This document shows positions 31,028 through 59,611 of a stretch of DNA of 64,000 bases, in pieces. Positions within the stretch are counted from its first letter, which is position 1. The number at the start of each line of letters is the position of its first letter. A program made the translations under genes and the position numbers. Under the pieces are notes generated by a model. It saw nothing but the letters and a program-made list of their open reading frames with translations, was not told the DNA's origin and ran no database searches. This DNA is from an uncultured Gammaproteobacteria bacterium (GTDB lineage: Bacteria; Patescibacteriota; Microgenomatia; Levybacterales; UBA12049), in contig CAZSQB010000001.1 of the NCBI GenBank assembly GCA_964608945.1, positions 3,211-67,210 on the forward strand, in the 5' to 3' direction.

Positions 31028-31726
31028 ATGAATATACCAAAACCAATGTCATTTTCAGAGAAGGTTGATGTCACTGAGGCAAAAGGGGAACATAAGTTCT
31101 ACTATTCATTTACAAAAAATTATATAAAAGGTAAAAATGTTCTTAACATTGGATCATGGACAGGTCCATATGAATTACTCATTTATAACACTGCAGCATC
31201 TATTACTGCAACAGATATAGAGAAGAAAGCATTACGGGTACTCAAAAAAAAATTACCAAAAGTAAAAACTATTTATGCATTCTCACATAAGCTTCCCTTC
31301 AAGGATAATACATTTGATGTTGTAACGTTCTGGGACGTTATTGAACATATTCCTATTGGATATGAACTCACATCATTACAGGAAATTAATAGAGTCCTCA
31401 AAAAAAATGGATATTTTTTCCTCGCAACAGTAAGTAAGAATTTTTGGAGCGATTTATTAGATCCAGCATACTGGCTGGCAGGGCATAGGCATTATACAGA
31501 ACAACAATTACTTTCAATGCTTACTGATGCCGGGTTTCGAACTGAAAAATCGGTACAAGTCGGTTCTTTTTTTAGCTCTTTTTATGCTTTGAGCTTCTAC
31601 TTTTTTAAACATATTCTCAGAATGAAGATGCCAACAATACAGTATGTTGAGGAAAGAATGGAGAAAAATATCTCTTCACCAGGATATATACAAATCGCAA
31701 TTAGGGCAAAAAAAGTTTATAGATAA
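31028..31726 (+). CDS. Class I SAM-dependent methyltransferase (Methyltransf_11-like).
   Basis: VLNIGSWTGPYELLIYN (motif I-like)...FDVVTFWDVIEHIP...LKKNGYFFL. Confidence 0.65.
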   Translation: MNIPKPMSFSEKVDVTEAKGEHKFYYSFTKNYIKGKNVLNIGSWTGPYELLIYNTAASITATDIEKKALRVLKKKLPKVKTIYAFSHKLPFKDNTFDVVTFWDVIEHIPIGYELTSLQEINRVLKKNGYFFLATVSKNFWSDLLDPAYWLAGHRHYTEQQLLSMLTDAGFRTEKSVQVGSFFSSFYALSFYFFKHILRMKMPTIQYVEERMEKNISSPGYIQIAIRAKKVYR

Positions 31727-32844
31727 ACAGCTTCCTTTACTTTTTTTGTAATATAATTTACTTCTTTATTGGTAAGTTTTGAGTAGAGAGGCAGTGATAT
31801 TTCTCTTCTTCCAATATCCTCTGCAACTGGAAACTGCCCTTCTTTCGTGCCATATTGGGTGCGATAAAATGAAAATAGGTGAATCGCTGGGTAATTGATA
31901 ACTGCTCCCACACCTTTTTCTTTTAAATAATCAAGAATTGTATCTCGTTTTTTAGGATCAACCCAAATCGGGAAAATATGTCTACCATGCTTTGATTCTT
32001 TATATTCATGAGGAAGTGTTATACGATCCACGTTCTCAAATGCTTTCCTGTATCTTTGCGCTATCAATTCCCGTTTCTTCCAAAATTTCTCTGCTTTTTT
32101 AACTTGGTGGAGAAGTAGTGCAGCCTGAAGATTATCCATATTATATTTCCATCCTAGAACATCAACATCGTATCCTCTTAACCCGGTTCTCACTCTCTGG
32201 GCCAATTCACTCGTAATACCATGAGAGCGAAATTTCTTTATTAACTTAGCTATTTCTTGGGAGTTTGTTGTAAATGCTCCTCCTTCTGCAGAAGTAATAC
32301 TTTTCGTGGCATAGAAACTGAAACAGGAGCCAAATGACCTTTGGCCTGGTTTTATTCCATCACGCTTTGCTTCAAGTGCATGAGCAGCATCTTCTATTAC
32401 TACAAGGTTATGTTTCTTTGCAATTGAGAGGATCTTTTTCATATCGACCATCTGACCGTACAGATGGACAGGAAGAATTGCTTTTGTTCGTTTTGTTATT
32501 GCTTTTTCAATAAGATCAGGGTCAATATTTCCCGTTTTTTCTTCTACATCGACAAATACTGGTGTTGCCCCTGTCATAACAATTGCATTTGCTGTTGCGA
32601 CAAAGGACATTGGTGTCGTTATGACCTCATCACCTCTTCCAACTCCAGCTGCAAGGAGCGCTAAGTGAAGTGCCGCTGTGCAACTTGTTAGTCCAACTGT
32701 ATATTTTGTCTCTAAATACTTCGCAAAAGCATTTTCGAATTCATCAACGTATTTTCCCGTTGTAAGAAAAAGGGAGCGCAGTACCTTTACAGCCTCGTTA
32801 ATTTCTTGAGAACCGATATTATGTTTGTAAAATTCTACCTTCAT
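31717..32844 (-). CDS. DegT/DnrJ/EryC1-family PLP-dependent sugar aminotransferase (WecE/ArnB-like).
   Basis: GDEVITTPMSFVATANAI...AILPVHLYGQMVDM...FSFYATKSITSAEGG. The conserved Schiff-base Lys is present in the SxxK-type motif. Confidence 0.85.
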   Translation of the reverse strand: MKVEFYKHNIGSQEINEAVKVLRSLFLTTGKYVDEFENAFAKYLETKYTVGLTSCTAALHLALLAAGVGRGDEVITTPMSFVATANAIVMTGATPVFVDVEEKTGNIDPDLIEKAITKRTKAILPVHLYGQMVDMKKILSIAKKHNLVVIEDAAHALEAKRDGIKPGQRSFGSCFSFYATKSITSAEGGAFTTNSQEIAKLIKKFRSHGITSELAQRVRTGLRGYDVDVLGWKYNMDNLQAALLLHQVKKAEKFWKKRELIAQRYRKAFENVDRITLPHEYKESKHGRHIFPIWVDPKKRDTILDYLKEKGVGAVINYPAIHLFSFYRTQYGTKEGQFPVAEDIGRREISLPLYSKLTNKEVNYITKKVKEAVYL

Positions 32845-36451: not shown

Positions 36452-37320
36452 TGAAAATTTTACTTATTGGAAAAAACGGACAACTTGGAGCAGAAATTAA
36501 TAAACAATCAGTTGAAAGAGGATATAGTATTCGTTCTTTCGGACATGAAAGACTTGATATTACAGATAATGAGAAAGTCAAATTAGAAATAGATAAATTC
36601 AAACCGGATGTGATTATTAACGCCTCTGCATTTCATGTTGTCCCGGAGTGTGAAGATAAACCAGACCAAGCTTTTTTAGTAAATGCAACCGCACTTAAAC
36701 CGGTTGCACAAATTTGTTCAGAGCAAAATATAAGATTTGTGCATTTTTCAACTGATTACGTTTTTGACGGACTAACAGGATCGCAATATCTTGAGGAAGA
36801 TAAGCCCAGTCCCGTACAAATGTATGGTATATCAAAAGTAGCGGGAGAATACATTATGCTTGCCTACTCTCAAACAAGCGTTGTAATAAGAAGCTCTGGA
36901 GTTTATGGAGGGGAAAAAGGAAGCAGGTCAAAAAAAGGAAATTTTGCTCTCAATATATTGAAACAAGCAGAAAAAGAGAATGTGATTGAAGTGGCATCAG
37001 AACAGATTGTTAATCCAACTTATGCGTTGGATTTGGCAAAAGCGACATTTGATCTTTTAGAGAGTAAAGACACCAGTGGTATTTACCATTTGGTTAATGA
37101 GGGCTATTGTTCTTGGGCGGATTTTGCGAAGGAAATTATTAAAATTAAAAATATGTCAACAAAAATCATTCCTGTTGATAGAGGAGGATTGGCAGGAACA
37201 CTGCGAAGACCGCTTTTTTCAGCGCTTAAAAACAATCGAGCGGCAAAACTCGGAATTAAACTCCCGATATGGCAAGACGCAATTAAAAGATACTGTCAGA
37301 CCATTAGTAAAGATGAATAA
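36451..37320 (+). CDS. rmlD: dTDP-4-dehydrorhamnose reductase.
   Basis: MKILLIGKNGQLGAE...PDVIINASAF...HFSTDYVFDG...YGISKVAGE. The start overlaps the rmlC stop (ATGA). Confidence 0.8.
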   Translation: MKILLIGKNGQLGAEINKQSVERGYSIRSFGHERLDITDNEKVKLEIDKFKPDVIINASAFHVVPECEDKPDQAFLVNATALKPVAQICSEQNIRFVHFSTDYVFDGLTGSQYLEEDKPSPVQMYGISKVAGEYIMLAYSQTSVVIRSSGVYGGEKGSRSKKGNFALNILKQAEKENVIEVASEQIVNPTYALDLAKATFDLLESKDTSGIYHLVNEGYCSWADFAKEIIKIKNMSTKIIPVDRGGLAGTLRRPLFSALKNNRAAKLGIKLPIWQDAIKRYCQTISKDE

Positions 37321-45172: not shown

Positions 45173-45796
45173 ATGATGGGTAAAAACAATAATCTTTATC
45201 GTAAAAAAGCAGAAACGCATTTAACCGAAAGCATCAAAGTTAAACAGGCAACGCTTGAAAAATGCATGAATTCAATTCTTGCTGCAGCTCAATTAATTGT
45301 GGATACTTTTTTATCCGGGGGTAAGGTTTTACTCTGCGGCAACGGTGGGAGTGCTGCCGATTGCCAGCACATGGCGACAGAACTTGTTAATACACTAGAT
45401 AAGAATTTTATTCGTCCCAGTCTGCCTGCCTTTGCCCTCACTACCGATACGTCAGTAATGACATCTTTTGCCAATGACTTTGGTTTTGATGGAGTCTTTG
45501 AACGCCAAATTCAAGGTTTGGGTAAGCCTAACGATTTATTAATAGGTCTCTCAACCAGTGGAAATTCCAAAAACATCATCAGAGCCATGACAGCGGCCAA
45601 TACTATCAAAATGCACACCCTGGCTTTAACCGGCAATTCCGGTAAACTACAAAAAATAGCAGATGTGGTAATTTCTATCCCTAGTAAAAATACACAATAC
45701 ATCCAAGAAGCACACTTGACTGTTGAACATATCCTTTGCGAATTGGTTGAGCATTATCTTTTTGTGGGTATAAAGAAAAAAGAACTATGGTCATAA
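45173..45796 (+). CDS. gmhA: Phosphoheptose isomerase (sedoheptulose-7-phosphate isomerase, SIS domain).
   Basis: LLCGNGGSAADCQHMATELV...LLIGLSTSGNSKNI...HTLALTGNSGKL, the diagnostic GmhA SIS motifs. Confidence 0.85.
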   Translation: MMGKNNNLYRKKAETHLTESIKVKQATLEKCMNSILAAAQLIVDTFLSGGKVLLCGNGGSAADCQHMATELVNTLDKNFIRPSLPAFALTTDTSVMTSFANDFGFDGVFERQIQGLGKPNDLLIGLSTSGNSKNIIRAMTAANTIKMHTLALTGNSGKLQKIADVVISIPSKNTQYIQEAHLTVEHILCELVEHYLFVGIKKKELWS

Positions 45797-46812
45797 GCAG
45801 AACTCCTTTTCGAATTTCTTTCTTTGGTGGAGGTACGGATTATCCTGCCTGGTATCGCAATAATGGTGGTGCAGTTCTCGCTACAACAATCAATAAGTAC
45901 TGCTACCTGAACGTAAGATTCCTGCCCCCTTTTTTTTGGCATAAATTTCGTATTGTCTATTCAAGGATAGAGAGTTGTAATACAATCGACGAAATTACTC
46001 ATCCAGCTGTGCGCGAAATTTTACGTTTCTTAAAGATTAATCAAGGATTAGAAATCCATCATGATGGTGATTTACCAGCCAGATCGGGACTCGGCTCTAG
46101 CTCTGCTTTTACAGTGGGACTTCTTAATGCACTTTATGCTCTGCTTGGGCATATGCCCAATAAGCACAACTTAGCAAAAGAAGGTATATACCTGGAACAA
46201 GAGGTTTTAAAAGAAACAGTTGGTTCTCAGGATCAAATCCTTGCGGCACATGGGGGTTTCAATCATATAACTTTTCATAAAAATGGGGAGATTACACTTA
46301 AACCTATAACCCTTTCTTCTAAGCGTATTAAGGAACTTGAAAATCATCTAATGTTATTCTATACAGGAATTCCTCGTATTGCTTCAAAAGTAGCTAAAAG
46401 CTATGTAAAAAAAATTAAAACCCGAGAAAAACAACTTAGCATTATGCAAGATTCGGTAGAAGAAGCTCTCTCCATTTTAACGGGTAAGCGCGATATGAAA
46501 AGTTTTGGTGAACTCTTAAACAAGTTTTGGCAAATAAAGAGAACCTTAAGCCCTCAAGTTTCCAATTCCACTATCGATGAAATTTATAAAAAATCCCTAT
46601 CTTCAGGCGCTATTGGGGGAAAGCTAATAGGTGCAGGCGGCGGCGGATTCTTACTTTTGTTTGTTCCTCCACGAAGTCAAAAAAAGGTAAGAGAAAGCTT
46701 AAAAAAACTTATTTATGTCCCTTTCAAATTTGAATCCCAAGGATCTCAAATTATCTTTTTTGACAGACAAGAAGATTACACAAACGAGATTAAACGCAAA
46801 CTCAGAACATGA
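45787..46812 (+). CDS. GHMP-family sugar kinase, HddA-like (D-glycero-D-manno-heptose 7-phosphate kinase-type).
   Basis: RTPFRISFFGGGTDYPAWY N-terminus typical of HddA/WcbL-like kinases. PARSGLGSSSAF is the GHMP ATP-binding motif. Overlaps the gmhA stop. Confidence 0.7.
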   Translation: MVISRTPFRISFFGGGTDYPAWYRNNGGAVLATTINKYCYLNVRFLPPFFWHKFRIVYSRIESCNTIDEITHPAVREILRFLKINQGLEIHHDGDLPARSGLGSSSAFTVGLLNALYALLGHMPNKHNLAKEGIYLEQEVLKETVGSQDQILAAHGGFNHITFHKNGEITLKPITLSSKRIKELENHLMLFYTGIPRIASKVAKSYVKKIKTREKQLSIMQDSVEEALSILTGKRDMKSFGELLNKFWQIKRTLSPQVSNSTIDEIYKKSLSSGAIGGKLIGAGGGGFLLLFVPPRSQKKVRESLKKLIYVPFKFESQGSQIIFFDRQEDYTNEIKRKLRT

Positions 46813-47813
46813 ATAAAAATCGTCATATCAGATGTGTACTTATCATTGGGATAAGTGGGTCTGGAGGTAGCTACCTTGCAGAGTATATAGTAAATAATCA
46901 CCCAAAAGTGGAAGTACATGGAATTTCCCGATGGCACTCAACCACAATAGATAATTTAGATAAGGTTCAAAGACAGGTTATCGTGCATGAAGCTGATTTA
47001 ATGGATATGGCTTCTGTAATTGAGGTTTTACAAAAAGTAAAACCTGACGCCATTTTTCATTTAGCAGCCCATGCAAATGTCAGAACTTCTTTTATAACAC
47101 CTACTTCGGTTTTAAGTAATAATATATTAGGTACCAGCAATCTTTTGGAAGCAATAAGGATTCTAAATATAAAGCCTATTGTACAAATTTGTAGTACTTC
47201 TGAAGTTTACGGCCAAGTAAATCCCAGAGATGTTCCAATCAAAGAGTTGTGCCCTTTAAATCCGATGAGCCCTTATGCCGTTTCCAAGACGACACAAGAT
47301 CTTTTAGGCGCTGTTTATTTTCGCGCGTATGATATGAAAATAATTCGCACCAGAATGTTTGCCTATATTAATCCTCGTAGAGAAGATCTTTTTGCTACCT
47401 TCTTTGCTATGCAGGTCGCACGTATTGAGGAAGGATTGCAGAAAGAACTTTTGCACGGCAACCTTGACTCTATCCGAACCCTGATTGATGTCCGTGACGC
47501 AATGGGGTCCTATTGGGTTGCGGTCGAAAAGTGCCGCTTCGGGCAGGTGTACAATATTGGGGGAAATACTGTAATTACAGTAGGAGAATTTCTAGATTTC
47601 TTAAGAAAGAAAGCGAAAGTTGCGATTCCCCTGCGCCTTTCTCCTAACTTACTTCGTCCCACTGACGTAACACTTCAAATCCCCGATGTTACAAAATTTA
47701 CTAAGGAAACTGGTTGGAGGCCGAAATATAGTTTTGAAGAGAGCGTAGAATTTTTATTGAATATTTGCAGGAGTACGGTGGCACGGAAAAACAGCGCGCG
47801 AAGCGCTAATTAA
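46809..47813 (+). CDS. NDP-sugar 4,6-dehydratase of the GDP-mannose dehydratase (GMD/DmhA) family.
   Basis: LIIGISGSGGSYLAEYIVNNHPKVEVHGISR, STSEVYG, SPYAVSK. The motif order and spacing match GMD. Confidence 0.75.
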   Translation: MNKNRHIRCVLIIGISGSGGSYLAEYIVNNHPKVEVHGISRWHSTTIDNLDKVQRQVIVHEADLMDMASVIEVLQKVKPDAIFHLAAHANVRTSFITPTSVLSNNILGTSNLLEAIRILNIKPIVQICSTSEVYGQVNPRDVPIKELCPLNPMSPYAVSKTTQDLLGAVYFRAYDMKIIRTRMFAYINPRREDLFATFFAMQVARIEEGLQKELLHGNLDSIRTLIDVRDAMGSYWVAVEKCRFGQVYNIGGNTVITVGEFLDFLRKKAKVAIPLRLSPNLLRPTDVTLQIPDVTKFTKETGWRPKYSFEESVEFLLNICRSTVARKNSARSAN

Positions 47814-47816
47814 ACA

Positions 47817-48992
47817 ATGTATAGATATAAATTAGCTGAAAGAATTATTGATAAAGAAGATATAGCTGCGTTCACTGCTTGGCTTAGTACAAAAGACAAT
47901 TCCCTGCCGCAGCTTACCAAGGGCCAATTGACCAATAAGCTTGAAATGAGTTGGGCTAAATGGGTTGGTACTAAATATGCGGTTTTTGTAAATTCCGGGT
48001 CCTCAGCTAACTTCCTGATGGCATATGCGGCTCTTCTTACAAAAAAGCTACGCAACAAAAAAGTTATTGTACCGAGTGTGGGATGGGTTACAACAATAAG
48101 CCCTTTTATGCAGCTTGGTTTCGAGCCCATAATGTGCGGAGCAAATCCCGATACTTTAGGGTTTGATCCCAATCACCTCGAAGCCTTGTTGAAAAAACAC
48201 CGACCGGCGCTGGTTATTATGGTTCATGTTCTAGGTGTACCTGATAATATGGACGTATTAAAGCATTTCCAGAAAAAGTATAAATTTATGCTATTGGAAG
48301 ACGCCTGTGCTGCTTTGGGTGCGGAATACGATGGTAAAAAGGTAGGAACGTTTGGTGATATGTCCTCCTTTTCTTTTTATTTTGGACACCAGCTCTCAAC
48401 TATTGAAGGCGGGATGATAAATACTAATAACAAAAAACTCTATGACCTGCTTGTGCTTTTACGAAGCCATGGGTGGGGCAAAGATTTGGACGAGAAAACT
48501 CACTTAAGATTAATGAAAAAATATAAGATAGATGGCTCCCATAAATCCTTCACGTTTTTTGTGCCGGGACTTAATCTGCGAAACACCGAGGTCGGTGCAT
48601 TTTTAGGGCTTCGCATGATGAAAAAAGCTGATCTGGTCACGAGAATTCGCAAGCGTAACCATTTAATATATGCCGCAAGCCTTAAAAATGTTACTTTTCA
48701 GAGGTGGAATAATAAGTCTGTGCCCTGTAGCATTTCGTTTGCTGTTCTCGCAAGAGATGGGGCACACCGAAAGGCATTAGTCAAGGAGCTTAACCGTAAC
48801 GGAATAGAGATACGCATATTTACGGCGGGGAATCTTGGCTTGCATCCTTTCTGGTTTGAAAATTATGGAAGATTTCATCATCCAGTTTCTGATGCAGTGT
48901 ACAGTCGTGGATTCTTTTTGCCAAACCATGAGTCGCTTGCGCCGCAAGATGTAAAATCAATTTGTAAGGTGGTGAACAAAGTAAATCTATGA
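47817..48992 (+). CDS. DegT-family PMP/PLP enzyme with His in place of the active-site Lys. Predicted NDP-4-keto-6-deoxy-sugar 3-dehydratase (ColD/E1-like).
   Basis: FSFYFGHQLSTIEGG. The His codon CAC at 48387..48389 aligns with the Lys of the aminotransferase FYATKSITSAEGG encoded at 31717..32844. The remainder is a typical DegT fold. Confidence 0.7.
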   Translation: MYRYKLAERIIDKEDIAAFTAWLSTKDNSLPQLTKGQLTNKLEMSWAKWVGTKYAVFVNSGSSANFLMAYAALLTKKLRNKKVIVPSVGWVTTISPFMQLGFEPIMCGANPDTLGFDPNHLEALLKKHRPALVIMVHVLGVPDNMDVLKHFQKKYKFMLLEDACAALGAEYDGKKVGTFGDMSSFSFYFGHQLSTIEGGMINTNNKKLYDLLVLLRSHGWGKDLDEKTHLRLMKKYKIDGSHKSFTFFVPGLNLRNTEVGAFLGLRMMKKADLVTRIRKRNHLIYAASLKNVTFQRWNNKSVPCSISFAVLARDGAHRKALVKELNRNGIEIRIFTAGNLGLHPFWFENYGRFHHPVSDAVYSRGFFLPNHESLAPQDVKSICKVVNKVNL

Positions 48993-49921
48993 AAGTTTTA
49001 GTTACCGGCGGTGCCGGCTACATCGGTTCTATACTAGTTCCTATGCTGCTTGAGAAAGGTGCCGCGGTAACGGTAGTGGACAATTTTTTTTATAACCAAA
49101 ATTCACTTCTAGACGTGTGTTATCATCCGAGACTAAAGGTTGTACGGGCAGATGCGCGGGGGGATAAACTCATGGCATCTTTAATGAAAGGACAAGACTA
49201 TATTTTGCCCCTGGCGTGTCTTGTGGGTGCGCCCCTTTGCGAGAAATTCCCGCAGGAAGCAAGAGCCGTAAATCTTGAAGCGATAAAAATGATTTTAAAA
49301 CTCCGAAAGCCTGGCCAGAAAATTATCTTTCCGAATACAAACAGCGGCTACGGCATTGGTAAGGCCGGGATTTATTGTAATGAGGCAACACCCCTTAGGC
49401 CGATTTCTTTATATGGACGGTTGAAAGTAGAAGCTGAAGAGGCGATACTTGCCGCCGGGAACGCCATTACTCTTCGCCTTGCGACCGTTTTTGGCATAAG
49501 TCCTAGAATGAGACTCGATCTTTTAGTGAATGACTTTGTTTACAGGGCTGTGCACGACGGCTATGTAGTCCTTTTTGAGGCAGGTTTTAAGCGAAATTAC
49601 ATTCACATTCGGGATGTAGCACGCGCATTTATCCATTGCATAGATAATTTCAAGAATTTGAAAAATGAACCCTACAATGTAGGACTAACGGATGCCAACC
49701 TTTCCAAACTAGAGCTTTGTGAGGAAATTAAAAGGCAGATTCCGGATTTTACTTTCGTTGTTTCTCCTATCGGTCGCGATCCGGATCAACGCAATTACAT
49801 TGTTTCAAACGTTAAGATAGAAAAGACTGGCTTTATGCCACAGATTTCTTTGCGAGACGGCATAACAGAGCTAATAAAGGGATATCAGATTATAAGGAGG
49901 CATGATTTTACCAACTTATGA
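48989..49921 (+). CDS. NAD(P)-dependent epimerase/dehydratase (extended SDR).
   Basis: MKVLVTGGAGYIGSILV...YGRLKVEAE (YxxxK). Confidence 0.7.
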   Translation: MKVLVTGGAGYIGSILVPMLLEKGAAVTVVDNFFYNQNSLLDVCYHPRLKVVRADARGDKLMASLMKGQDYILPLACLVGAPLCEKFPQEARAVNLEAIKMILKLRKPGQKIIFPNTNSGYGIGKAGIYCNEATPLRPISLYGRLKVEAEEAILAAGNAITLRLATVFGISPRMRLDLLVNDFVYRAVHDGYVVLFEAGFKRNYIHIRDVARAFIHCIDNFKNLKNEPYNVGLTDANLSKLELCEEIKRQIPDFTFVVSPIGRDPDQRNYIVSNVKIEKTGFMPQISLRDGITELIKGYQIIRRHDFTNL

Positions 49922-50871
49922 AGTTGCTGGAAATTTATAGAAAGCTTTATCTTATTCGGAGGAGCGAAGAATTGATTATTAAGCATTATAAAGAAAATGA
50001 AATGAAGACGCCCATGCATATGTCCATGGGTGAAGAAGCCATTGTAGTAGGAGTAGTCGCGGCTCTTCAAAAAAGAGATCAGGTGTTTGGTACTTATAGA
50101 AGTCATGGTTTATATCTGGCGAAGACCGATGATACGGATAAATTTTTTGCCGAACTTTACGGTAAGGTGACCGGTAGCGCTCGCGGAAGGGCGGGGTCAA
50201 TGCATCTTGCCTCGCCCAAGAATTGGATGATGCTTACCTCCGCAGTAGTAGGAACAACCATTCCCGCCGCAGTCGGAGCAGCACTGGCAAATAAATTTCT
50301 AAAGAACCAAAAGGTGGTTGCCTCATTTTTCGGCGATGGTGCGCTTAATGAGGGTGTTTTTTGGGAGAGTTTGAATTTCGCCTGCCTTAAAAAACTGCCA
50401 GTTCTTTTTGTATGCGAAGACAATAATTTTGCTATACACTCGCCAGTTGGCGAGCGCATAGGATATAAATCCATAGTGCAGGTGGTGTCGCAATTCTACT
50501 GTCATGTAGCTGGCAGTGATACTACCGACGTCTTTGAGATTTGTAGGGAAACTTCCGAGATGATTAAGAAAATGAAACAGACCGGCAAGCCGGGATTTCT
50601 TCACTTAAAATACTATCGGTATCTTGAGCATGTAGGCGTGGAGGAGGATTTTCATTTCGGTTATAGGTCAAGACAGGAATTTTTAAAGTGGAAAAGAGTC
50701 GATCCGCTGCTTGTCGCCCGAAGATATTTACTTCGCGCCCGCGTGAAAGAAAACGATATAACCGCCGAAGAATTTATTGTTGACCAAAATCTAGCTCAGA
50801 GTCTTAACAAAGCGCGAAAAGCGCCGTATCCAACCGATGCGGAGTTATTTGCTGATATATATGGCTCGTAG
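49918..50871 (+). CDS. Thiamine-diphosphate-dependent dehydrogenase E1 component, alpha subunit (PDH/acetoin-DH E1-alpha family).
   Basis: FFGDGALNEGVFWESLNFACLKKLPVLFVCEDNNFAI is the GDG-x(25-30)-NN TPP-binding motif. YRSHG. Confidence 0.8.
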   Translation: MKLLEIYRKLYLIRRSEELIIKHYKENEMKTPMHMSMGEEAIVVGVVAALQKRDQVFGTYRSHGLYLAKTDDTDKFFAELYGKVTGSARGRAGSMHLASPKNWMMLTSAVVGTTIPAAVGAALANKFLKNQKVVASFFGDGALNEGVFWESLNFACLKKLPVLFVCEDNNFAIHSPVGERIGYKSIVQVVSQFYCHVAGSDTTDVFEICRETSEMIKKMKQTGKPGFLHLKYYRYLEHVGVEEDFHFGYRSRQEFLKWKRVDPLLVARRYLLRARVKENDITAEEFIVDQNLAQSLNKARKAPYPTDAELFADIYGS

Positions 50872-51907
50872 AATCATTACCTTTGAAAAAGCGGTTAACG
50901 AAGCTATTTTTTTGGAAATGAAACGCGACAAACGCGTTTTCCTTTTCGGTCTTGACGTAACAGATCATAAGAGAATTTTTGGTACAACTGAGGGGTTGGA
51001 GATATTCGGCAGGAACAGGTTTTTTGGAACGCCGCTTTCTGAGGACGCTATGATCGGCGTCGCGCTCGGAGCGGCGATAACGGGGTTAAGACCAATCCAC
51101 GTTCATATACGCGTTGACTTTCTCCTTTTGGCAATGAATCAACTTATAAATATGGTTGCCACAACGGCCTTTGGCAGCGCTGGAAAGTTAAAAGCACCTC
51201 TGGTTATTAGGGCAATTATTGGGCGCGGATGGGGTCAGGGATTTCAACATTCTAAATCATTGCAATCAGTATTTGCTCATATGCCTGGTCTTAAAGTCGT
51301 AATGCCGTCTCGGCCGTCGGACGCCAAGGGATTATTAATATCGGCAATTCGGGACGATAATCCCGTAATTTTTTTGGAGCATCGATGGCTTTATTGGCTG
51401 CAAGGAGATGTGCCGTCGAATGCATACACCATACCGCTTGGGGAATCGTGCATTTTGAGAGCTGGCCGCGACATTACCATCGTGGCAACATCATGGATGA
51501 ACGTTGAGGCCGCGAAAGCTGCGGAGATTCTTTCACGCATACACGGCGTCGAAGCAGAAATCATTGATGTTAGAACAATATACCCCCTTGACGACGAAGC
51601 AATCGTAAAGTCCGTGATAAAGACAGGTCGCTTAATCGTGGCCGATTACGATTGGGAATTCTGTGGATTTAGCGCCGAAGTTGCAGCACGTGTCGCTGAG
51701 AAATGTTTTAATAAATTGAAGTCACCTGTAAGTAGAATCGCCTTTCCTCATACGTCATGTCCCACCACGCGTCCGCTGGAAAACGCATTTTATCCCAATG
51801 CTGCAACTATCATTCGCGAGGTTGAAAAGAAATTGGGGCTCGCGAGAGCGGACTTGCGAAGCGAGGATTTTTATAGTTGGGAGAATAGGTTTAAAGGACC
51901 TTTTTAA
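50861..51907 (+). CDS. TPP-dependent dehydrogenase E1 component, beta subunit (transketolase-like Pyr plus C-terminal domains).
   Basis: FGLDVTDHKRIFGTTEGL...FGTPLSEDAMIGVALGAAITGLRPI...GQGFQHSQSLQSVFAHMPGLKVVMPS. ATG at 50861 is preferred over the track's 50837; it overlaps the alpha stop by 11 nt. Confidence 0.75.
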   Translation: MARRIITFEKAVNEAIFLEMKRDKRVFLFGLDVTDHKRIFGTTEGLEIFGRNRFFGTPLSEDAMIGVALGAAITGLRPIHVHIRVDFLLLAMNQLINMVATTAFGSAGKLKAPLVIRAIIGRGWGQGFQHSKSLQSVFAHMPGLKVVMPSRPSDAKGLLISAIRDDNPVIFLEHRWLYWLQGDVPSNAYTIPLGESCILRAGRDITIVATSWMNVEAAKAAEILSRIHGVEAEIIDVRTIYPLDDEAIVKSVIKTGRLIVADYDWEFCGFSAEVAARVAEKCFNKLKSPVSRIAFPHTSCPTTRPLENAFYPNAATIIREVEKKLGLARADLRSEDFYSWENRFKGPF

Positions 51908-51908
51908 A

Positions 51909-53096
51909 ATGAAAAAATTAAACTGGCCACTCATGAAAAAAAATATTTTAAGGGAAGATTTAGATGCTGTTGTAAAATTTCTTAAAGCTAAAGATGATCT
52001 AATTCTTACCCAATCTAAGAATGTGCGAAAATTTGAAGAAGAATGGTCCAAGTGGCTAGGGGTCAAATACAGTGTTTTAGTTAACTCCGGTGCATCAGCC
52101 AATCTTTTAAGCATCTTAGCAATTCGGCAAATGTATGGTTTGGGTGAGATAATTGTTCCTCCGTTAACTTGGGTATCTGATATTGCATCTGTTATCCAGT
52201 GTGGTTTCAAACCAGTGTTTGTGGATATCAATCCAAGGACACTTGGGATGGATAATGAGCTAGTTTTGAGAAAAATTACCCGTAATACAAAGGCTGTTTT
52301 TTTGACCCATATCTTAGGAATAAACGGCCTCAGTCAAAAATTGTTGGACGAATTGCGCGCAAAAAAAATTCCGCTTGTTGAAGACGTTTGTGAATCATAC
52401 GGAGCAACTTTTAAAGGAAAAAAGCTAGGCACATTTGGCCTTATATCAAATTTTTCTTTCTACTATGCTCATCATATGAGTAGTATTGAAGGAGGAATGA
52501 TTTCCACAAATGATCCTGACATATACGAGATGATCCGTATGGGGCGTAGCCATGGAATGGTACGTGAGGCTGATTCGGAGTCACTAAAAAAATCTTATCA
52601 AAAAAAATATCCTGATCTAAATCCAGATTTTATATTTGCATTTCCAGCATATAATATGCGCTCTACTGAAATAAATGCTGTCATAGGATTATCTCAACTT
52701 CGAAGGCTTTCTAAAAACAATAAAATTCGTTCAAAAAATTTAAAAATATTTTTATCAAATCTGAATCCTAACATATACCAAACAGACTTTGAGACCCGCG
52801 GTAGTTGTAACTATGCATTTGTTTTAGTTCTGAAACAACCTAGTCCCTTACTTGCAAAGAAAGTTATGAGGACGCTTAACGCTTATGGTGTCGAGTTTCG
52901 TAGGGGAACTTCAGGTGGAGGAAATCAGTTAAGGCAACCCTATTTAAGAAAGATTGTTGGCGATAAAGAGTATAAAAAATATCCAAATGTTGAGCATATA
53001 CACTTTTATGGCCTTTATATTGGTAACTACCCTACCTTAGAAGAGAAGAAAATTTACAAGTTGTGCGATGTTCTAAATAATCTTAAGAAGTCGTAG
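51909..53096 (+). CDS. Second DegT-family enzyme with His in place of Lys. Predicted sugar 3-dehydratase (ColD/E1-like).
   Basis: FSFYYAHHMSSIEGG (His codons at 52470..52475). ATG at 51909 lies immediately after the E1-beta stop; the track start at 51798 is a read-through. Confidence 0.7.
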   Translation: MKKLNWPLMKKNILREDLDAVVKFLKAKDDLILTQSKNVRKFEEEWSKWLGVKYSVLVNSGASANLLSILAIRQMYGLGEIIVPPLTWVSDIASVIQCGFKPVFVDINPRTLGMDNELVLRKITRNTKAVFLTHILGINGLSQKLLDELRAKKIPLVEDVCESYGATFKGKKLGTFGLISNFSFYYAHHMSSIEGGMISTNDPDIYEMIRMGRSHGMVREADSESLKKSYQKKYPDLNPDFIFAFPAYNMRSTEINAVIGLSQLRRLSKNNKIRSKNLKIFLSNLNPNIYQTDFETRGSCNYAFVLVLKQPSPLLAKKVMRTLNAYGVEFRRGTSGGGNQLRQPYLRKIVGDKEYKKYPNVEHIHFYGLYIGNYPTLEEKKIYKLCDVLNNLKKS

Positions 53097-53097
53097 C

Positions 53098-54051
53098 ATG
53101 AAAAAGAATAAAGTCTTAGTTTGCGGAGCCAGTGGATTCATTGGTCGCAATATTGCAGAAAGGCTAGGTAAACGCCCTGATATGAAGGTTTATGGAACCT
53201 ATTTTGAAACAAAGCCCAGTATAAAAGGTATTTCTTTGATTAGAGTTGATTTAACAAATAAATCAGAAGTTAGCCAAATTGTCAGGGGTATGGATATTGT
53301 AATCCAGGCGGCTGCAGTAACCTCAGGATCAAAAGATATTGTTACAAAACCATACATTCATGTTACAGATAATGCTATTATGAATAGCCTAATTTTTAAG
53401 TCATGCTTTGATAATCGCGTTAAACATGTTGTATTTTTTAGTTGCACAGTAATGTATCCAAGCAAAAATAATCCTGTAAAAGAGGAGGATTTTAATTATG
53501 AAATTACGGATAAATATTTCGGTGTTGGATGGACAAAAGTATATTTGGAAAAGATGTGTGAGTTCTACTCAAGGATTGGTAATACAAAATATACGGCCAT
53601 AAGACACACAAATATTTATGGTCCCTTTGATAAATACGACTTAGATAAATCTCATTTTTTTGGAGCAACAATAACTAAGGTTTTACGAGCCCGCGATAAC
53701 GAGATTGTTATTTGGGGAGACGGATCTGAAGAAAGAGATCTACTTTATGTTTCAGATTTAGTCGATTTTATTGAGATAGTTTTAAAAAAACAAAAAGAAC
53801 CATTCGAGTTAATTAACATAGGACTAGGAAAGAGTTTTTCTGTAAAAGATGTGATAGGCAAAATTATTGAAATTTCCGGTAAAAATAAAAGCATGGAATT
53901 TGACACCTCAAAGCCCACAATTAAATTTAATTTGGCTGTTAATATTGAGAAAGCACGAAAAAAATATAACTTTAGACCAAAGATTTCTCTTGAAAAAGGA
54001 ATAAAAAAAACAATATCTTGGTATAAGAAAAGCTTTTTAGAAAAAAAATAA
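53098..54051 (+). CDS. NAD(P)-dependent epimerase/reductase (GDP-fucose-synthase-like SDR).
   Basis: KVLVCGASGFIGRNIA...YLEKMCEFY. No 4,6-dehydratase signature, hence a reductase/epimerase call. Confidence 0.65.
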   Translation: MKKNKVLVCGASGFIGRNIAERLGKRPDMKVYGTYFETKPSIKGISLIRVDLTNKSEVSQIVRGMDIVIQAAAVTSGSKDIVTKPYIHVTDNAIMNSLIFKSCFDNRVKHVVFFSCTVMYPSKNNPVKEEDFNYEITDKYFGVGWTKVYLEKMCEFYSRIGNTKYTAIRHTNIYGPFDKYDLDKSHFFGATITKVLRARDNEIVIWGDGSEERDLLYVSDLVDFIEIVLKKQKEPFELINIGLGKSFSVKDVIGKIIEISGKNKSMEFDTSKPTIKFNLAVNIEKARKKYNFRPKISLEKGIKKTISWYKKSFLEKK

Positions 54052-55074
54052 ATGAGAAATACCAAACACAACTTCTATAGAGGTAAAAATGTACTTGTTA
54101 CCGGTGGGACTGGTTTAATAGGAAGACCCTTGGTGGAAATGCTTATTGAGGCCCAAGCTAAGGTAAGGGTTGTTTCTTTGGATGCTCCCTCAAGAGCCCA
54201 TCCTGCGGCGGAATTTTTAAGGTTGGATCTTACTGATGTCAATAATTGCCTAAAAGCTGCTCGGGGAATGAATTACGTGTTTCACCTTGCTGGTATAAAA
54301 GGGTCTCCGAAAATGACCAAAGAGCGTCCAGCAAGTTTCTTTGTCCCGACAATTCTTTTCAATACCAATATGATGGAGGCGGCAAGGCGAACAGGCGTCA
54401 AACACTATCTTTATACAAGTACTATTGGGGTATATGCTCCGGCCGAAGTATTTTATGAAGATGATGTATGGAAGAGTTTTCCTTCTGAAAATGACAAATT
54501 TGCTGGATGGGCAAAGCGTATGGGAGAACTTCAGGCGCAGGCATATAGAATAGAATACGGCTGGAATAAGATTTCCATTTTGAGACCTGCGAATGTGTAC
54601 GGACCTTACGACAACTTTGATCCGGAAAACGCCATGGTAATACCTTCAATCATCGCGCGCTCGCTTGGCGGAGAAAATCCGCTCGTGGTATGGGGTGACG
54701 GAACGCCTATTCGCGATTTCATTCATGCCAAAGACGTAGCGCGAGGAATGATGATGGCTATTGAAAAACGAGTTAATGTCCCAGTTAATTTAGGTAGTGG
54801 TACCGGAGTAACAATAAAACAGATTGCAGAAACAATTGCAAAGTTTGTTCCGGGAGAGCCTATTAAAATTGTTTGGGATAAAAGTAAGCCGATGGGTGAC
54901 AAGAAAAGATTGATGGATATAACAAGGGCAAAAAAACTTCTTGGATTTAAGCCAATAATGTCGCTTGATGAGGGAATTAAAGAAACCATAGATTGGTATC
55001 TAAAAAACAAATCTCTATTGAATAAAAGATATAATATTTTCAATGAACCCAAATCTAAAAAGAAAAAAAAGTAA
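54052..55074 (+). CDS. NAD(P)-dependent epimerase/reductase (GDP-L-fucose synthase family-like SDR).
   Basis: NVLVTGGTGLIGRPLVE...YAPAEV...WAKRMGE...RPANVYGPYDNFDPENAMVIPS. Confidence 0.7.
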   Translation: MRNTKHNFYRGKNVLVTGGTGLIGRPLVEMLIEAQAKVRVVSLDAPSRAHPAAEFLRLDLTDVNNCLKAARGMNYVFHLAGIKGSPKMTKERPASFFVPTILFNTNMMEAARRTGVKHYLYTSTIGVYAPAEVFYEDDVWKSFPSENDKFAGWAKRMGELQAQAYRIEYGWNKISILRPANVYGPYDNFDPENAMVIPSIIARSLGGENPLVVWGDGTPIRDFIHAKDVARGMMMAIEKRVNVPVNLGSGTGVTIKQIAETIAKFVPGEPIKIVWDKSKPMGDKKRLMDITRAKKLLGFKPIMSLDEGIKETIDWYLKNKSLLNKRYNIFNEPKSKKKKK

Positions 55075-55813
55075 TTATTTGATTACCGGTTCTGGAAGTG
55101 GTCTAGGTAAGTATTTTCATGATCAATTAGGGGGGACTTCCTTTAATAGAGATTTTGGGAATGTCGACGAAACAGAAGTACTTATTCATTGCGCTTTTAA
55201 TCTAGCAAGAGAAGTTAATTCCAAAGATCTTTACCAATACCTTCTTGATAATTTTTTTTTAACAAAAAAATTAGCTATAATTCCCCATAAAAAATTTATT
55301 TACGTATCATCAGTGGATGTGTACCCAAAAAATAACAAAAAACATTCTGAAAACGAAATAATAGATGTCAATCAAATATCTGGTTTTTACGGGGTAACCA
55401 AGCTTATGTCAGAAAGCCTAATTCAAAATCTTTGTCCGAACTTTTTGATACTAAGATGCTCAGCACTTCTTGGGAAGGATGCACGCACAAATAGTTTGAA
55501 AAAAATAATAAGAGAAGAGAATCCTACTTTAACTTTATCTTCCGAATCTGTATTCAATTTTATTTTACACAAGGACGTTTTAGAATTTGTAAAGATAGCA
55601 ACTGAAAAAGATCTACAAGGAGTATATAATTTAGTATCATCAGAAAATATCACCCTTTTCCAAATAGCAGAATTACTTGGAAAAAAAGTTAGCTTTGGAA
55701 GTTATATGTACAACGTAGGAGAAATAGATAATAAAAAGGCTTCTTTGGTGGCTTCGTCTTTTAAAAAGACCTCGCGGGAGATAGTAATTGAATTCATGGA
55801 TTTAATATCATGA
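55043..55813 (+). CDS. Short NAD-dependent epimerase/dehydratase-like protein (divergent SDR).
   Basis: YLITGSGSGLGKYF Rossmann motif, YGVTKLMSE (YxxxK). 256 aa. The start overlaps the upstream gene by about 30 nt and may lie further downstream. Confidence 0.5.
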   Translation: MNPNLKRKKSNYLITGSGSGLGKYFHDQLGGTSFNRDFGNVDETEVLIHCAFNLAREVNSKDLYQYLLDNFFLTKKLAIIPHKKFIYVSSVDVYPKNNKKHSENEIIDVNQISGFYGVTKLMSESLIQNLCPNFLILRCSALLGKDARTNSLKKIIREENPTLTLSSESVFNFILHKDVLEFVKIATEKDLQGVYNLVSSENITLFQIAELLGKKVSFGSYMYNVGEIDNKKASLVASSFKKTSREIVIEFMDLIS

Positions 55814-56472
55814 AAACGACTCTTTTTATCCCAACTTTAAATGAAATAGACGGCATGAAAGCTATCATGCCGCGCGTAAAAAAACAGTGGGTCGATGAAA
55901 TCTTGGTGCTCGACGGCAACTCTTCGGACGGCACGGTAGAATATGCTAAATCACTGGGCTATCGAGTCGTCATGCAAAAATCAAAAGGCATCACAAATGC
56001 TTATCGTGAAGCCTTAAAAATCGCTAAAGGCGACATCATTGTGGCTTTTAGCCCGGATGGAAATTCACTGCCAGAGGTCATACCCGAACTGGTCCGGAAA
56101 ATGAAGGAAGGTTACGACATGGTAATCGCCTCCCGGTACATAGGGGGAGCAAAAAGCGATGATGATGATCCGGTCACGGCTTTCGGTAATTGGATGTTTA
56201 CAACATTAATCAATATAGCTTTTGGTGGGAACTATACGGATTCGCTTGTAATGCTCCGAGCATTTAAGAAAGATATCGTTCAAGAACTTCACATCGATGT
56301 TCCGCGGGCCGGAATGGAACCGATTCTATCGATTCGATGCGCCAAGCAAAAACTAAAAGTCGCCGAAATTCCGGCCTCTGAGCCCAAACGCATTGGCGGC
56401 ACACGCAAGATGAATCCCCTTTTAAACGGCTTGGATATTCTCCGCTTGATCTTTGCGGAGCTGATGCACTAA
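55810..56472 (+). CDS. GT2 polyprenyl-phosphate sugar synthase (GtrB/ArnC/DPM1-like, short form).
   Basis: TLFIPTLNEIDGMK...ILVLDGNSSDGT...AFSPDGNSLPE. Noticeably GC-richer than the flanking genes. Confidence 0.75.
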   Translation: MKTTLFIPTLNEIDGMKAIMPRVKKQWVDEILVLDGNSSDGTVEYAKSLGYRVVMQKSKGITNAYREALKIAKGDIIVAFSPDGNSLPEVIPELVRKMKEGYDMVIASRYIGGAKSDDDDPVTAFGNWMFTTLINIAFGGNYTDSLVMLRAFKKDIVQELHIDVPRAGMEPILSIRCAKQKLKVAEIPASEPKRIGGTRKMNPLLNGLDILRLIFAELMH

Positions 56473-56543
56473 CCCAGACGCAGAAAAAATTCTAATCTGT
56501 GCCGCCGCCGCTATGTATTGCGCATTTCCAATTTTTAGGTATA

Positions 56544-58937: not shown

Positions 58938-59611
58938 AGAAAAATAAAAAGAATTTTGAGAAATATTACTTTGAGGGATATTACAAAGGGATAGGGGATT
59001 TTAGTGTCAAACGAGATCGCGAGCTTTCAAATTGGTTTCGCGGGATGCTCGAATACATTAATAAATTTTATCCTATAAAGAATGGTAGAGGTAGAAAGTT
59101 AATTGAATTTGGTTGTGCAACAGGAGCAGCCGCAAATTTACTTGCCGATTATGGATTTAGTGTTTTCTCAAGCGATGTATCAAAATACGCTGTAAATTTA
59201 GCAGCGAAAAATTATCCGGATATAAAATTCATCGTCCATGATATGCAAAAACAATTCATGAAGGATGAGAATTTTGATGTAGCCGTTGCATTTGATGTAA
59301 TAGAACACTTGAAAGATCCAGAAATGTCTCTTAGGAATACTTATAAGATATTAAAACATGGTGGGACTATAATTCTAACAACACCCAATGATTACAAACA
59401 CATGTCAAATGATCCGACCCACATAAGCGTCAAGAAGCCTAATGAGTGGAGAAAAATTATGAGGAGGGTTGGCTTTAAGAACATTATGATTAAGCAAGTT
59501 GCATTTATTCCTTATTTTTACAGATTCCACTGGAGGTTGAATTACGCACTGCCGATAGCAATTTCATCGCCTTATGTAATTTCACCGGTTGTAATTATTG
59601 CTAAAAAATGA
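58934..59611 (+). CDS. Class I SAM-dependent methyltransferase.
   Basis: KLIEFGCATGAAANLLADYGFSVFSSDVS...FDVAVAFDVIEHL...LKHGGTIILT. Confidence 0.7.
   Translation: MKKNKKNFEKYYFEGYYKGIGDFSVKRDRELSNWFRGMLEYINKFYPIKNGRGRKLIEFGCATGAAANLLADYGFSVFSSDVSKYAVNLAAKNYPDIKFIVHDMQKQFMKDENFDVAVAFDVIEHLKDPEMSLRNTYKILKHGGTIILTTPNDYKHMSNDPTHISVKKPNEWRKIMRRVGFKNIMIKQVAFIPYFYRFHWRLNYALPIAISSPYVISPVVIIAKK

Follow-up and report, generated by a model that had tools for sequence, protein, structure and literature searches.

Two divergent ColD-like dehydratases in a heptose-type operon and the branched deoxy-heptose pathway they may serve

In the nucleotide-sugar 3-dehydratases E1, ColD and SpnQ, the lysine of the related aminotransferases is replaced by histidine (PMC8987622). 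E1 and SpnQ bind a [2Fe-2S] cluster through four cysteines and require a reductase; ColD works without a cluster, hydrolyses its intermediate and has its pyridoxamine 5'-phosphate (PMP) recharged with glutamate (PMC8987622). The present analysis deals with two His-type members of this group, here called P1 and P2, which are encoded in one operon on a stretch of 64,000 nucleotides (the window; positions 3,211 to 67,210 of contig CAZSQB010000001.1, assembly GCA_964608945.1) filed as an uncultured Gammaproteobacteria bacterium and placed by its GTDB lineage in the Patescibacteriota. A third relative, P3, is of the Lys type and lies on the opposite strand. P1 and P2 were found to be ColD-like, and we give a probability of about 0.6 to the reading that they are ColD-type 3-dehydratases, most likely serving one redundant step, in a predicted pathway for a branched deoxy-heptose.

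Two further bodies of work provide a basis for this reading. In Campylobacter jejuni, a ColD-type C3-dehydratase converts GDP-6-deoxy-4-keto-heptose to a 3-deoxy-4-keto sugar with pyridoxal 5'-phosphate (PLP) and glutamate, and in vitro the same enzyme also takes GDP-4-keto-heptose, the 6-hydroxy 4-keto product of Cj1427 (PMC10440746, PMC10680097), a GDP-heptose C4-dehydrogenase that uses alpha-ketoglutarate (PMC10680097). For the 3-deoxy-4-keto heptose, an m/z of 616.08 is reported (PMC10680097). The characterised ColD-type enzymes, ColD and those of C. jejuni, are 62-67% identical to one another (PMC10440746). On the side of sugar branching, YerE adds a C2 branch to CDP-4-keto-3,6-dideoxyglucose (PMC9306805), and the two-subunit alphaKADH2 enzymes AviB1/B2, Pau11/12 and KbDH-alpha/beta, which resemble pyruvate dehydrogenase (PDH), add C2 branches to deoxy-keto sugars (PMC4425429, PMC4753412, PMC12247030). 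In those three studies the alphaKADH2 branching enzymes appear only in actinomycete antibiotic pathways.

Catalytic position and ColD-like character of P1 and P2

An earlier sequence-only reading of the window had proposed that three of its proteins share one family, that two of them carry His at the position of the Schiff-base Lys, and that the third keeps Lys. All three proteins match the Pfam family PF01041 (DegT_DnrJ_EryC1) strongly, with E = 1e-64 to 2e-67 for P1 and P2 and 5e-121 for P3, and translation of the open reading frames (ORFs) gives the motifs FSFYFG-H191-QLSTIEGG in P1, FSFYYA-H188-HMSSIEGG in P2 and FSFYAT-K-SITSAEGG in P3. The register was set by phmmer alignments to PDB chains of wild-type ColD (2gms) and of its mutants H188N (3b8x), H188K (2r0t) and S187N/H188K (3gr9), and the sole residues that vary among the mutant chains face the His of P1 and the His of P2. 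In a joint MAFFT alignment of P1, P2, P3, ColD and 240 database relatives (120 of P1 and 120 of P2), one column is common to the two His residues, ColD His188 and the Lys of P3, and it is occupied by His in 120/120 relatives of P1 and 120/120 relatives of P2. The His residues are thus homologous to the catalytic Lys, and no Lys was found within 15 residues of the catalytic His in either protein, so that none one or two residues away could fill the site. With these motifs and the shared column, the proposed replacement is borne out, and it is the same one that the review of E1, ColD and SpnQ describes for 3-dehydratases (PMC8987622), as had been claimed. The nearest family-conserved Lys (K175 in P1, K172 in P2) was considered as a Schiff-base stand-in and rejected, because the Lys-type P3 carries that Lys as well. 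The starts of P1 at 47817 and P2 at 51909 match the N-terminal consensus of each family; the longest possible P2 ORF, from 51798, would run into the E1-beta gene.

The cysteines of the [2Fe-2S] motif had been suggested as the means of telling an E1-type from a ColD-like enzyme, and the motif, tested as E1 Cys193, 251, 253 and 261, is absent from P1 and P2. In P1, E1 Cys251, 253, 257 and 261 (rdCyCapgCdntC) face a Cys-free gapped stretch, and the only motif Cys kept is the equivalent of Cys193 (EDxC), which ColD has too; P2 contains Cys at positions 98, 161, 300 and 386 only, with none between residues 162 and 299. No E3-type reductase (Fer2 or FNR-type domain) was found in Pfam scans of nearly all large ORFs of the window. 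ColD is the best PDB match of both P1 (2gms, E about 1e-54 to 1e-55, compared with 3e-32 for E1) and P2 (E = 3e-57), with phmmer scores of ~189 and ~197 bits, respectively, against ~115 and ~113 bits for E1. The best NCBIfam model for both proteins is RfbH, at 188-191 bits and far under its 423-bit cutoff. In a neighbour-joining tree, ColD, the P1 family and the P2 family cluster to the exclusion of E1 in 96/100 bootstraps; the P1 and P2 families are sisters in only 70/100. Among structures, ColD chains occupy the top nine Foldseek ranks for the AlphaFold2 model of P1 (predicted local distance difference test, pLDDT, 90.6; template modelling, TM, scores 0.84-0.87) and rank 1 for that of P2 (pLDDT 80.0; TM 0.77-0.81 against ColD), with GDP-perosamine synthases as the following structural neighbours of both. 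The P2 model is of low confidence in the active-site loops 186-193, 215-219 and 241-251, and no pocket argument is drawn from it. Because the best sequence and structure matches are to ColD, the E1 Cys cluster and an E3 are missing, and E1 falls outside the clade, P1 and P2 are ColD-like rather than E1-like. An assignment to the E1/DdhC type was rejected for the missing cluster and reductase, the weak score against the E1 structure and the position of E1 outside the clade.

Conversion of ColD to an aminotransferase needs S187N together with H188K (PDB 3gr9). At the position of ColD Ser187, Gly is present in 120/120 members of the P1 family and Ala in 119/120 members of the P2 family, and residue 187 is small in both families, not the Asn of the converting double mutant. 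Both families retain ColD D159, S183, N248, R250 and R331; P2 also keeps R219, and its family differs only at 187 (Ala) among the residues checked. We take D159, S183, N248, R219 and R331 to be active-site and GDP-phosphate contacts of ColD. P1 and P2 are 32% identical to each other and 31-33% identical to ColD, which places them outside the 62-67% range of the characterised enzymes and in separate subfamilies within the ColD-like clade. Relatives of the two proteins carry aminotransferase labels at NCBI, as had been foreseen for homology pipelines in general; that expectation fails for JGI, where the labels 'CDP-6-deoxy-D-xylo-4-hexulose-3-dehydrase' or 'E1' are already in use.

Operon variants with one or both dehydratases

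P1 and P2 belong to a plus-strand run of genes that abut or overlap by a few bases, in the order GmhA, HddA-like kinase, DH46, P1, SDR310, E1 alpha, E1 beta, P2, SDR317, SDR340, SDR256 and GT2 (SDR, short-chain dehydrogenase/reductase; GT2, glycosyltransferase family 2; Table 1). The twelve operon proteins were mapped onto 113 loci by tblastn, and sister loci were inspected over ~10 kb to either side of the genes. In variant A, seen in L005/L094, L095, L096 and L007/L097, GmhA, the kinase and DH46 are followed by P1, SDR310 and E1 alpha/beta and then by SDR317, SDR340, SDR256 and GT2, and P2 is never present. In variant B, the kinase and a 4,6-dehydratase are followed by E1 alpha/beta and P2 and then by SDRs, and the E1 alpha and beta proteins are only ~44% and ~50% identical to the window pair. 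L005 and L094-L096 represent the window operon without P2, with neighbours 71-93% identical to those of the window (84-93% in L005/L094). L111 and L112 represent it without P1, with neighbours 74-95% identical and an A-type E1 alpha/beta pair at 81-86%. At the site where the other copy would sit, the flanking genes of the one-copy loci L005 and L112 abut or overlap, and no remnant of the missing copy appears in the gene calls there. Among the loci compared, both P1 and P2 occur only in the window and in L001, a separately assembled contig (Logan SRR12113384) that is 100% identical from DH46 through P1, SDR310, E1 alpha/beta and P2 to SDR340.

Operons that are nearly identical in other respects contain either P1 or P2 as their sole dehydratase. 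The two therefore most likely perform one and the same step and are functionally interchangeable, and the window locus is most likely a hybrid or recombinant of two interchangeable cassette versions that carries both. The earlier prediction of two 3-deoxygenation enzymes is supported, with the correction that the two most likely do not stand for two separate steps, since sister loci have only one of them.

As a rule, the type of E1 alpha/beta follows that of the dehydratase, the A-type going with P1 and the B-type with P2 (L012-L091 compared with L111-L113). L111 and L112 depart from this in pairing an A-type E1 alpha/beta with P2, and L113 pairs an equally similar P2 (86%) with the B-type. 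By this comparison, cassettes are shuffled frequently among close relatives.

The two families differ in their distribution. Relatives of P1, 60-89% identical, come from metagenomes, and every named one belongs to the Patescibacteria (candidate phyla radiation, CPR), as Roizmanbacteria, Daviesbacteria, Sungbacteria or Parcubacteria. The names of relatives would place the host of the window in the CPR, probably in the Microgenomates group. Relatives of P2, 63-84% identical and thus unusually conserved, are spread across many phyla, with 523 matches in a species-level genome collection that include Cyanobacteria, Verrucomicrobiota, Chloroflexota, Binatia, several proteobacterial classes, Levyibacteriota and Omnitrophota; the closest relative in this collection is 84% identical, and no identical sequence is present there. 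P1 and P2 represent two deep ColD-like subfamilies. Of the 61 P2-type genome loci that include 2.5 kb or more of upstream sequence, 39 have E1 beta as the gene immediately before the P2 orthologue, and the linkage to E1 alpha/beta is kept in 39-44 of the 61 as well as in the P1-type loci that are long enough (L005, L007 and L094-L097). A heptose kinase homologue is present in 43/49 P2-type loci with enough sequence, and a P1-type gene in 0/80 P2-type genome loci. Hosts of the module of heptose genes and E1 alpha/beta include CPR bacteria, cyanobacteria, Verrucomicrobiota and Chloroflexota as well as members of other phyla. Among cultured carriers of the P2-type module are Nodosilinea nodulosa PCC 7104 (L038) and Roseofilum (L009/L010).

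Several features of individual loci were also recorded. In 17/61 P2-type loci (e.g., L041, L042, L047, L055, L061 and L074) no E1 alpha/beta was detected, with the heptose kinase often present; Verrucomicrobiota account for several of these loci. An unbranched 3-deoxy or 3,6-dideoxy heptose, like that of C. jejuni, may be the end product there. A B12-binding radical SAM enzyme (501-664 amino acids, aa) is encoded downstream of the P2 orthologue in L009, L010 and L011 (~11.4-14.3 kb in locus coordinates), directly after it in L011, a metagenomic contig of 2.7 Mb, and with one SDR gene between in the Roseofilum loci L009 and L010. The sugar of those lineages may thus be C-methylated further or rearranged; no gene of this kind was found in the window. 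The two closest loci of the genome collection (L012 and L013; CAYJRY010000001.1 and CAZWXQ010000003.1), with operons 69-84% identical to the CPR-like window, are titled 'uncultured Gammaproteobacteria bacterium', a taxonomic label that looks doubtful.

Selection on both copies is purifying and about as strong as on their neighbours. In pairwise comparisons with unsaturated synonymous divergence (dS 0.3-0.7), the ratio of nonsynonymous to synonymous divergence (dN/dS) is 0.19 for P1 against L005, with neighbours at 0.11-0.29, and 0.15-0.17 for P2 against L112 and L111, with neighbours at 0.11-0.23. P2 deviates from its family at 1/145 near-invariant positions and P1 at 3/124, and only 7.5% of P1 family members deviate at three or more such positions. 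Decay of one copy is not supported, with dN/dS values like those of the neighbours and the three deviations of P1 making it a mild outlier. These deviations are Q137H, L151F and T332I, the last of which adjoins the conserved Arg333 (aligned with ColD R331); they hint, weakly, at a slightly relaxed constraint on P1 when P2 accompanies it.

Table 1. Features of the window discussed in the text
Feature	Coordinates	Strand	Basis
WecD-like N-acyltransferase, probable partner of P3	28652..29404	+	NCBIfam dTDP-4-amino-4,6-dideoxy-D-galactose acyltransferase, E = 4e-26
P3, Lys-type DegT sugar aminotransferase (predicted), separate pathway	31717..32844	-	PF01041, E = 5e-121; NCBIfam PseC, 362 bits
RmlB-like NDP-glucose 4,6-dehydratase (NDP, nucleoside diphosphate), directly upstream of P3	32849..33919	-	NCBIfam TIGR01181 (dTDP-glucose 4,6-dehydratase), 319 bits
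GmhA, sedoheptulose-7-phosphate isomerase	45173..45796	+	Pfam SIS_2; NCBIfam phosphoheptose isomerase, E = 1e-61
HddA-like GHMP heptose-7-phosphate kinase	45787..46812	+	GHMP_kinases N and C domains; HddA, E = 5e-44, under cutoff
DH46, GMD/RMD-family GDP-sugar enzyme	46809..47813	+	TSE and YxxxK motifs kept
P1, ColD-type (His) PMP-dependent nucleotide-sugar 3-dehydratase (predicted)	47817..48992	+	ColD match, invariant His, no E1 Cys cluster
SDR310	48989..49921	+	PDB 6vo6/6vo8, phmmer E = 8e-108, 363 bits, full length
E1 alpha, thiamine diphosphate (ThDP)-dependent, alphaKADH2 type, predicted sugar-branching enzyme	49918..50871	+	Pfam E1_dh; NCBIfam PDH E1 alpha, E = 1e-74
E1 beta	50861..51907 (ORF can start at 50837)	+	Transket_pyr and Transketolase_C; PDB PDH E1 beta, E = 3e-69
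P2, ColD-type (His) 3-dehydratase (predicted), second, widespread subfamily	51909..53096	+	ColD match, invariant His
SDR317, Fcl/ColC-like epimerase/reductase	53098..54051	+	NCBIfam GDP-L-fucose synthase, E = 5e-39; GDP-fucose synthases among top PDB matches
SDR340, Fcl/ColC-like epimerase/reductase	54052..55074	+	NCBIfam GDP-L-fucose synthase, E = 9e-45; GDP-fucose synthetase PDB, E = 1e-33
SDR256, short SDR-like protein	55043..55813	+	Pfam Epimerase, profile positions 64-238 only
GT2, polyprenyl-phosphate sugar transferase-like (AglJ / dolichyl-P-hexose / ArnC type)	55810..56472	+	Glycos_transf_2; AglJ, E = 4e-35

Among the remaining operon genes, E1 alpha has an intact ThDP motif (GDG...NN, residue 139), and its best PDB matches, within a comparison set of metabolic E1s only, are the E1 alpha subunits of branched-chain 2-oxoacid dehydrogenase and PDH; the E1 beta gene call in L001 comprises 348 aa. 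No E2 or E3, the partners of a 2-oxoacid dehydrogenase, was found in the window. By these matches E1 alpha/beta is a genuine heterotetramer-type 2-oxoacid E1, and the arrangement known for alphaKADH2 is present here: adjacent E1 alpha and beta, an intact ThDP motif, no E2 or E3, and a position among deoxy-keto-sugar enzymes. DH46 matches GDP-heptose and GDP-mannose 4,6-dehydratases as well as Rmd, and is probably a GDP-heptose 4,6-dehydratase. SDR310 is probably a C4-dehydrogenase of GDP-heptose of the Cj1427 type. A GmhB phosphatase and an HddC guanylyltransferase were not found in the window, whose only nucleotidyltransferase is an RfbF-like ORF at 34025; related loci encode GmhB and an HddC/ManC-like guanylyltransferase. 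GT2 also matches the NCBIfam dolichyl-phosphate hexose transferase model (E = 3e-22). In SDR256, the N-terminal part of the Epimerase domain is apparently missing and the gene overlaps that of SDR340 by 32 nt, and yet it is among the best-conserved genes of the operon (93% identical in L005).

Predicted pathway and alternative explanations

On the basis of these genes, GmhA and the HddA-like kinase would begin the activation of a heptose, with phosphatase and guanylyltransferase of the kind encoded in related loci, and DH46 and/or SDR310 would convert the GDP-heptose to a 4-keto intermediate by dehydration or oxidation. P1 or P2 would then remove the 3-OH of the 4-keto heptose. In the predicted reaction, PMP forms a Schiff base with the C4 keto group of GDP-4-keto-heptose, the active-site His abstracts the PMP C4' proton so that the 3-OH is expelled, and hydrolysis of the enamine yields a 3-deoxy-4-keto sugar and ammonia, after which L-glutamate would recharge PLP to PMP; neither an iron-sulfur cluster nor a reductase partner would be involved. 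E1 alpha/beta may attach a C2 unit from pyruvate to C4, reduction or epimerisation of the branched product may fall to the Fcl-like SDRs, and GT2 would load the sugar onto polyprenyl phosphate for the GT-C transferases encoded around the operon. Speculatively, the overlap of the P1 and SDR310 genes might reflect a coupling of cofactors, in which alpha-ketoglutarate made by the ColD-type enzyme is consumed by the Cj1427-type enzyme. The His replacement, the ColD-like character, the gene linkage and the distribution of one-copy and two-copy loci are direct results of the analysis, whereas the redundancy of the two copies, their substrate, the addition of a carbon branch and the end product are what we infer.

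Several points weigh against the reading of P1 and P2 as one redundant step in such a pathway. An identity to ColD of 31-33% means that the substrate, and even the outcome of the reaction, could be different. At four positions (162 Ala, 187 Gly, 189 Gln and 219 Lys) the P1 family is fixed for a residue that neither ColD nor P2 has, which may indicate another substrate preference. DH46 is also compatible with an RMD-type 4-reductase, the S/T-S-E and YxxxK motifs being common to both kinds of enzyme. The likeness of SDR310 to Cj1427 depends on 6vo6 being Cj1427, as we take it to be. With neither GmhB nor HddC in the window and an RfbF-like ORF as its only nucleotidyltransferase, GDP is no more than the predicted activating nucleotide of this host. 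Moreover, the two routes to a 4-keto sugar, through DH46 and through SDR310, leave room for two dehydratase specificities, and two intact copies kept by purifying selection would also be expected if their roles were not redundant. The 'missing' paralog of the sister genomes could sit elsewhere than in the ~10 kb covered on each side.

The main rival, close to the sequence-only picture of two deoxygenation functions, is a specialisation of the two dehydratases, in which a 6-deoxy-4-keto sugar would be made via DH46 and a 6-hydroxy-4-keto sugar via SDR310, P1 would act on one and P2 on the other or on a later intermediate, and two 3-deoxy sugars would result. The co-occurrence in the operon of a 4,6-dehydratase-family gene with one for a probable C4-dehydrogenase is consistent with this, as such a pair yields 6-deoxy and 6-hydroxy products in C. 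jejuni HS:3/HS:4 (PMC10680097), and so are the gene positions (P1 follows DH46 and overlaps SDR310, P2 follows E1 beta), the differences fixed in the active-site region of the P1 family and the selection on both copies. We nevertheless regard specialisation as unlikely, given that sister loci with the same set of DH46, SDR310, E1 alpha/beta and SDRs hold one dehydratase, either P1 or P2, and that one C. jejuni ColD-type enzyme takes both 4-keto substrates in vitro (PMC10680097).

It is quite improbable that one or both His-type proteins are not dehydratases at all and catalyse some other PMP/PLP reaction, such as amination of the ketone of an acetyl branch. The location of P2 directly after E1 beta in 39/61 loci would suit such a role, an acetyl branch is transaminated in kibdelomycin, and SpnQ shows transaminase activity in the absence of its reductase (PMC8987622); under those conditions, however, wild-type ColD and E1 showed no aminotransferase activity (PMC8987622), and P1 and P2 keep the His, N248 and the phosphate-binding Arg residues as in ColD. 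Furthermore, P2-type genes also occur in the 17/61 heptose loci with no detected E1 alpha/beta, and P1 is located upstream of E1 alpha/beta and can replace P2. The double arrangement itself could be non-biological or non-functional, as an assembly chimera of P1-only and P2-only strains or as a redundant copy being lost, and the fact that close relatives differ by the presence of exactly one gene, together with the 3/124 deviating positions of P1 (three or more in only 7.5% of its family), could be read in this way. On the other hand, L001 spans both genes at 100% identity, an identical P2 is present on an NCBI contig of 94 kb, and both ORFs are intact and tightly packed with dN/dS of 0.15-0.19 like that of their neighbours, which makes such an origin very improbable; a chimeric assembly in particular is unlikely on account of L001.

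Apart from redundancy of the dehydratases, a more specific proposal may be made, which we hold tentatively and at rather less than even odds: the module would make an undescribed C-branched 3-deoxy or 3,6-dideoxy heptose, nine-carbon and yersiniose-like, for surface glycans, and the window would show one dehydratase paralog in the course of displacing the other. If true, this would be the first sugar-branching system of the alphaKADH2 type beyond actinomycete antibiotic pathways and would extend such systems to cell-surface glycans, and two anciently diverged dehydratase lineages would be seen to swap within an otherwise constant operon. No description of a branched heptose, or of an E1 alpha/beta pair in heptose loci, was found in the literature searched, which is not proof of novelty, and none was found there of two ColD-like subfamilies or of the in-place exchange of their lineages.

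The inference from Lys to His is textbook knowledge, and C3-dehydration of GDP-heptoses by ColD-type enzymes has been described. What appears to be new is the existence of two highly conserved ColD-like subfamilies, for which the aminotransferase labels of NCBI and the CDP-hexulose E1 dehydrase labels of JGI are probably wrong in detail, and their coupling to PDH-like E1 alpha/beta in heptose loci across many phyla, CPR bacteria included. The module predicts a new branched deoxy-heptose on poorly known bacteria, among them the CPR/Patescibacteria, whose envelope glycans are essentially uncharted. In addition, the series of P1-only, P2-only and double loci at ~85% identity may serve as a clean natural experiment on functional equivalence.

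Surrounding glycan genes and comparison with known systems

P3 belongs to another pathway, independent of the operon of P1 and P2. Its best NCBIfam model is PseC, at 362 bits and under the 423.5-bit cutoff. An RmlB-like enzyme, an aminotransferase and an acyltransferase together form the standard set for a 4-acetamido-4,6-dideoxyhexose; here the RmlB-like enzyme would supply the 4-keto substrate of P3, and the WecD-like gene lies ~2.3 kb away. P3 is accordingly predicted to be an ordinary Lys-type 4-aminotransferase, as its RmlB-like and WecD-like neighbours would lead one to expect. With the Lys of P3 in the catalytic column and these neighbours, the claim of one true sugar aminotransferase is supported. 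A second sugar pathway is encoded between 34025 and 37320, with genes for the RfbF-like glucose-1-phosphate cytidylyltransferase (251 bits, just under cutoff), a 352-aa SDR, RmlC and RmlD, all on the plus strand; the RmlB-like dehydratase of this pathway (32849-33919) is on the opposite strand and adjoins P3.

The window has a GC content of 36.8%, and the remainder of it forms a glycan-assembly island rich in PMT_2/GT-C and GT2 genes. Between 4273 and 15544, seven consecutive genes form an unusually dense tandem array, each encoding a PMT_2/PMT protein of 473-558 aa (GT-C, dependent on polyprenyl-phosphate sugars); two more PMT_2 genes are located at 23765-25105 and 26630-28363, and a YfhO/PTPS-related membrane protein at 19017-20657. 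Three ORFs of 800-990 aa (37076-40039, 42253-45111 and 56499-58937) have no significant Pfam match, and Pfam-less ORFs occupy matching positions in L005 (940, 941 and 767 aa) and L112 (986 and 886 aa); these may be unrecognised membrane glycosyltransferases or surface proteins. A 1168-aa protein encoded at 59608-63114 combines a weak N-terminal GT-C_AftD (arabinofuranosyltransferase-like) domain with DUF5667, and its equivalent in L111 has 1118 aa and the same Pfam match.

Compared with ColD (WbdK), the GDP-4-keto-6-deoxy-D-mannose 3-dehydratase of E. coli O55:H7 (2gms, 3b8x), P1 and P2 share the fold, the His column and the residues D159/S183/N248/R250/R331. With ColD and the GDP-heptose C3-dehydratases of C. 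jejuni HS:5/HS:11, they have in common the lack of a [2Fe-2S] motif and of a reductase and the GDP-sugar or heptose context (PMC10440746). They differ from ColD in being only 31-33% identical to it, in the change of Ser187 to Gly (P1) or Ala (P2), and, for the P1 family, in R219K, H189Q and E162A. The systems differ as well: the dehydratases of the window are present as two divergent copies and are paired with a ThDP-dependent E1 alpha/beta, rather than leading straight to a ColC-type reductase. With E1/DdhC/RfbH (3bcx), the CDP-4-keto-6-deoxy-D-glucose 3-dehydrase that works with E3, the likeness lies in the replacement of Lys by His and in the deoxygenation at C3, predicted for P1 and P2, of an NDP-4-keto sugar, whereas P1 and P2 lack Cys251/253/257/261, have no E3-like gene detected in the window, score 188-191 against the 423 bits of RfbH, and leave E1 outside their clade.

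The pathway of yersiniose A (E1/E3, then YerE, then YerF) and the alphaKADH2 systems follow a shared logic with the predicted one, in which a 4-keto deoxy sugar made by a dehydratase receives a C2 unit from a ThDP enzyme and is reduced by an SDR. In the window, unlike in yersiniose A, the donor enzyme is a two-subunit E1 alpha/beta, the 3-dehydratase is of the ColD type, and the sugar is apparently a GDP-heptose, not a CDP- or dTDP-hexose, the branching being deduced from the gene set. In contrast to the antibiotic systems with alphaKADH2 enzymes, the hosts of the module are CPR bacteria, cyanobacteria, Verrucomicrobiota and others, and the sugar is predicted to serve cell-surface glycans. The capsular GDP-heptose toolkit of C. 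jejuni resembles the operon in its GmhA/HddA-type activation, 4,6-dehydratase homologue, probable Cj1427 homologue, ColD-type dehydratase and Fcl-like reductases; C. jejuni, however, has neither the ThDP-dependent E1 alpha/beta partner nor a second dehydratase paralog, and the exit of the sugar in the window would proceed via a polyprenyl-phosphate GT2 and GT-C transferases, instead of a capsule polymerase.

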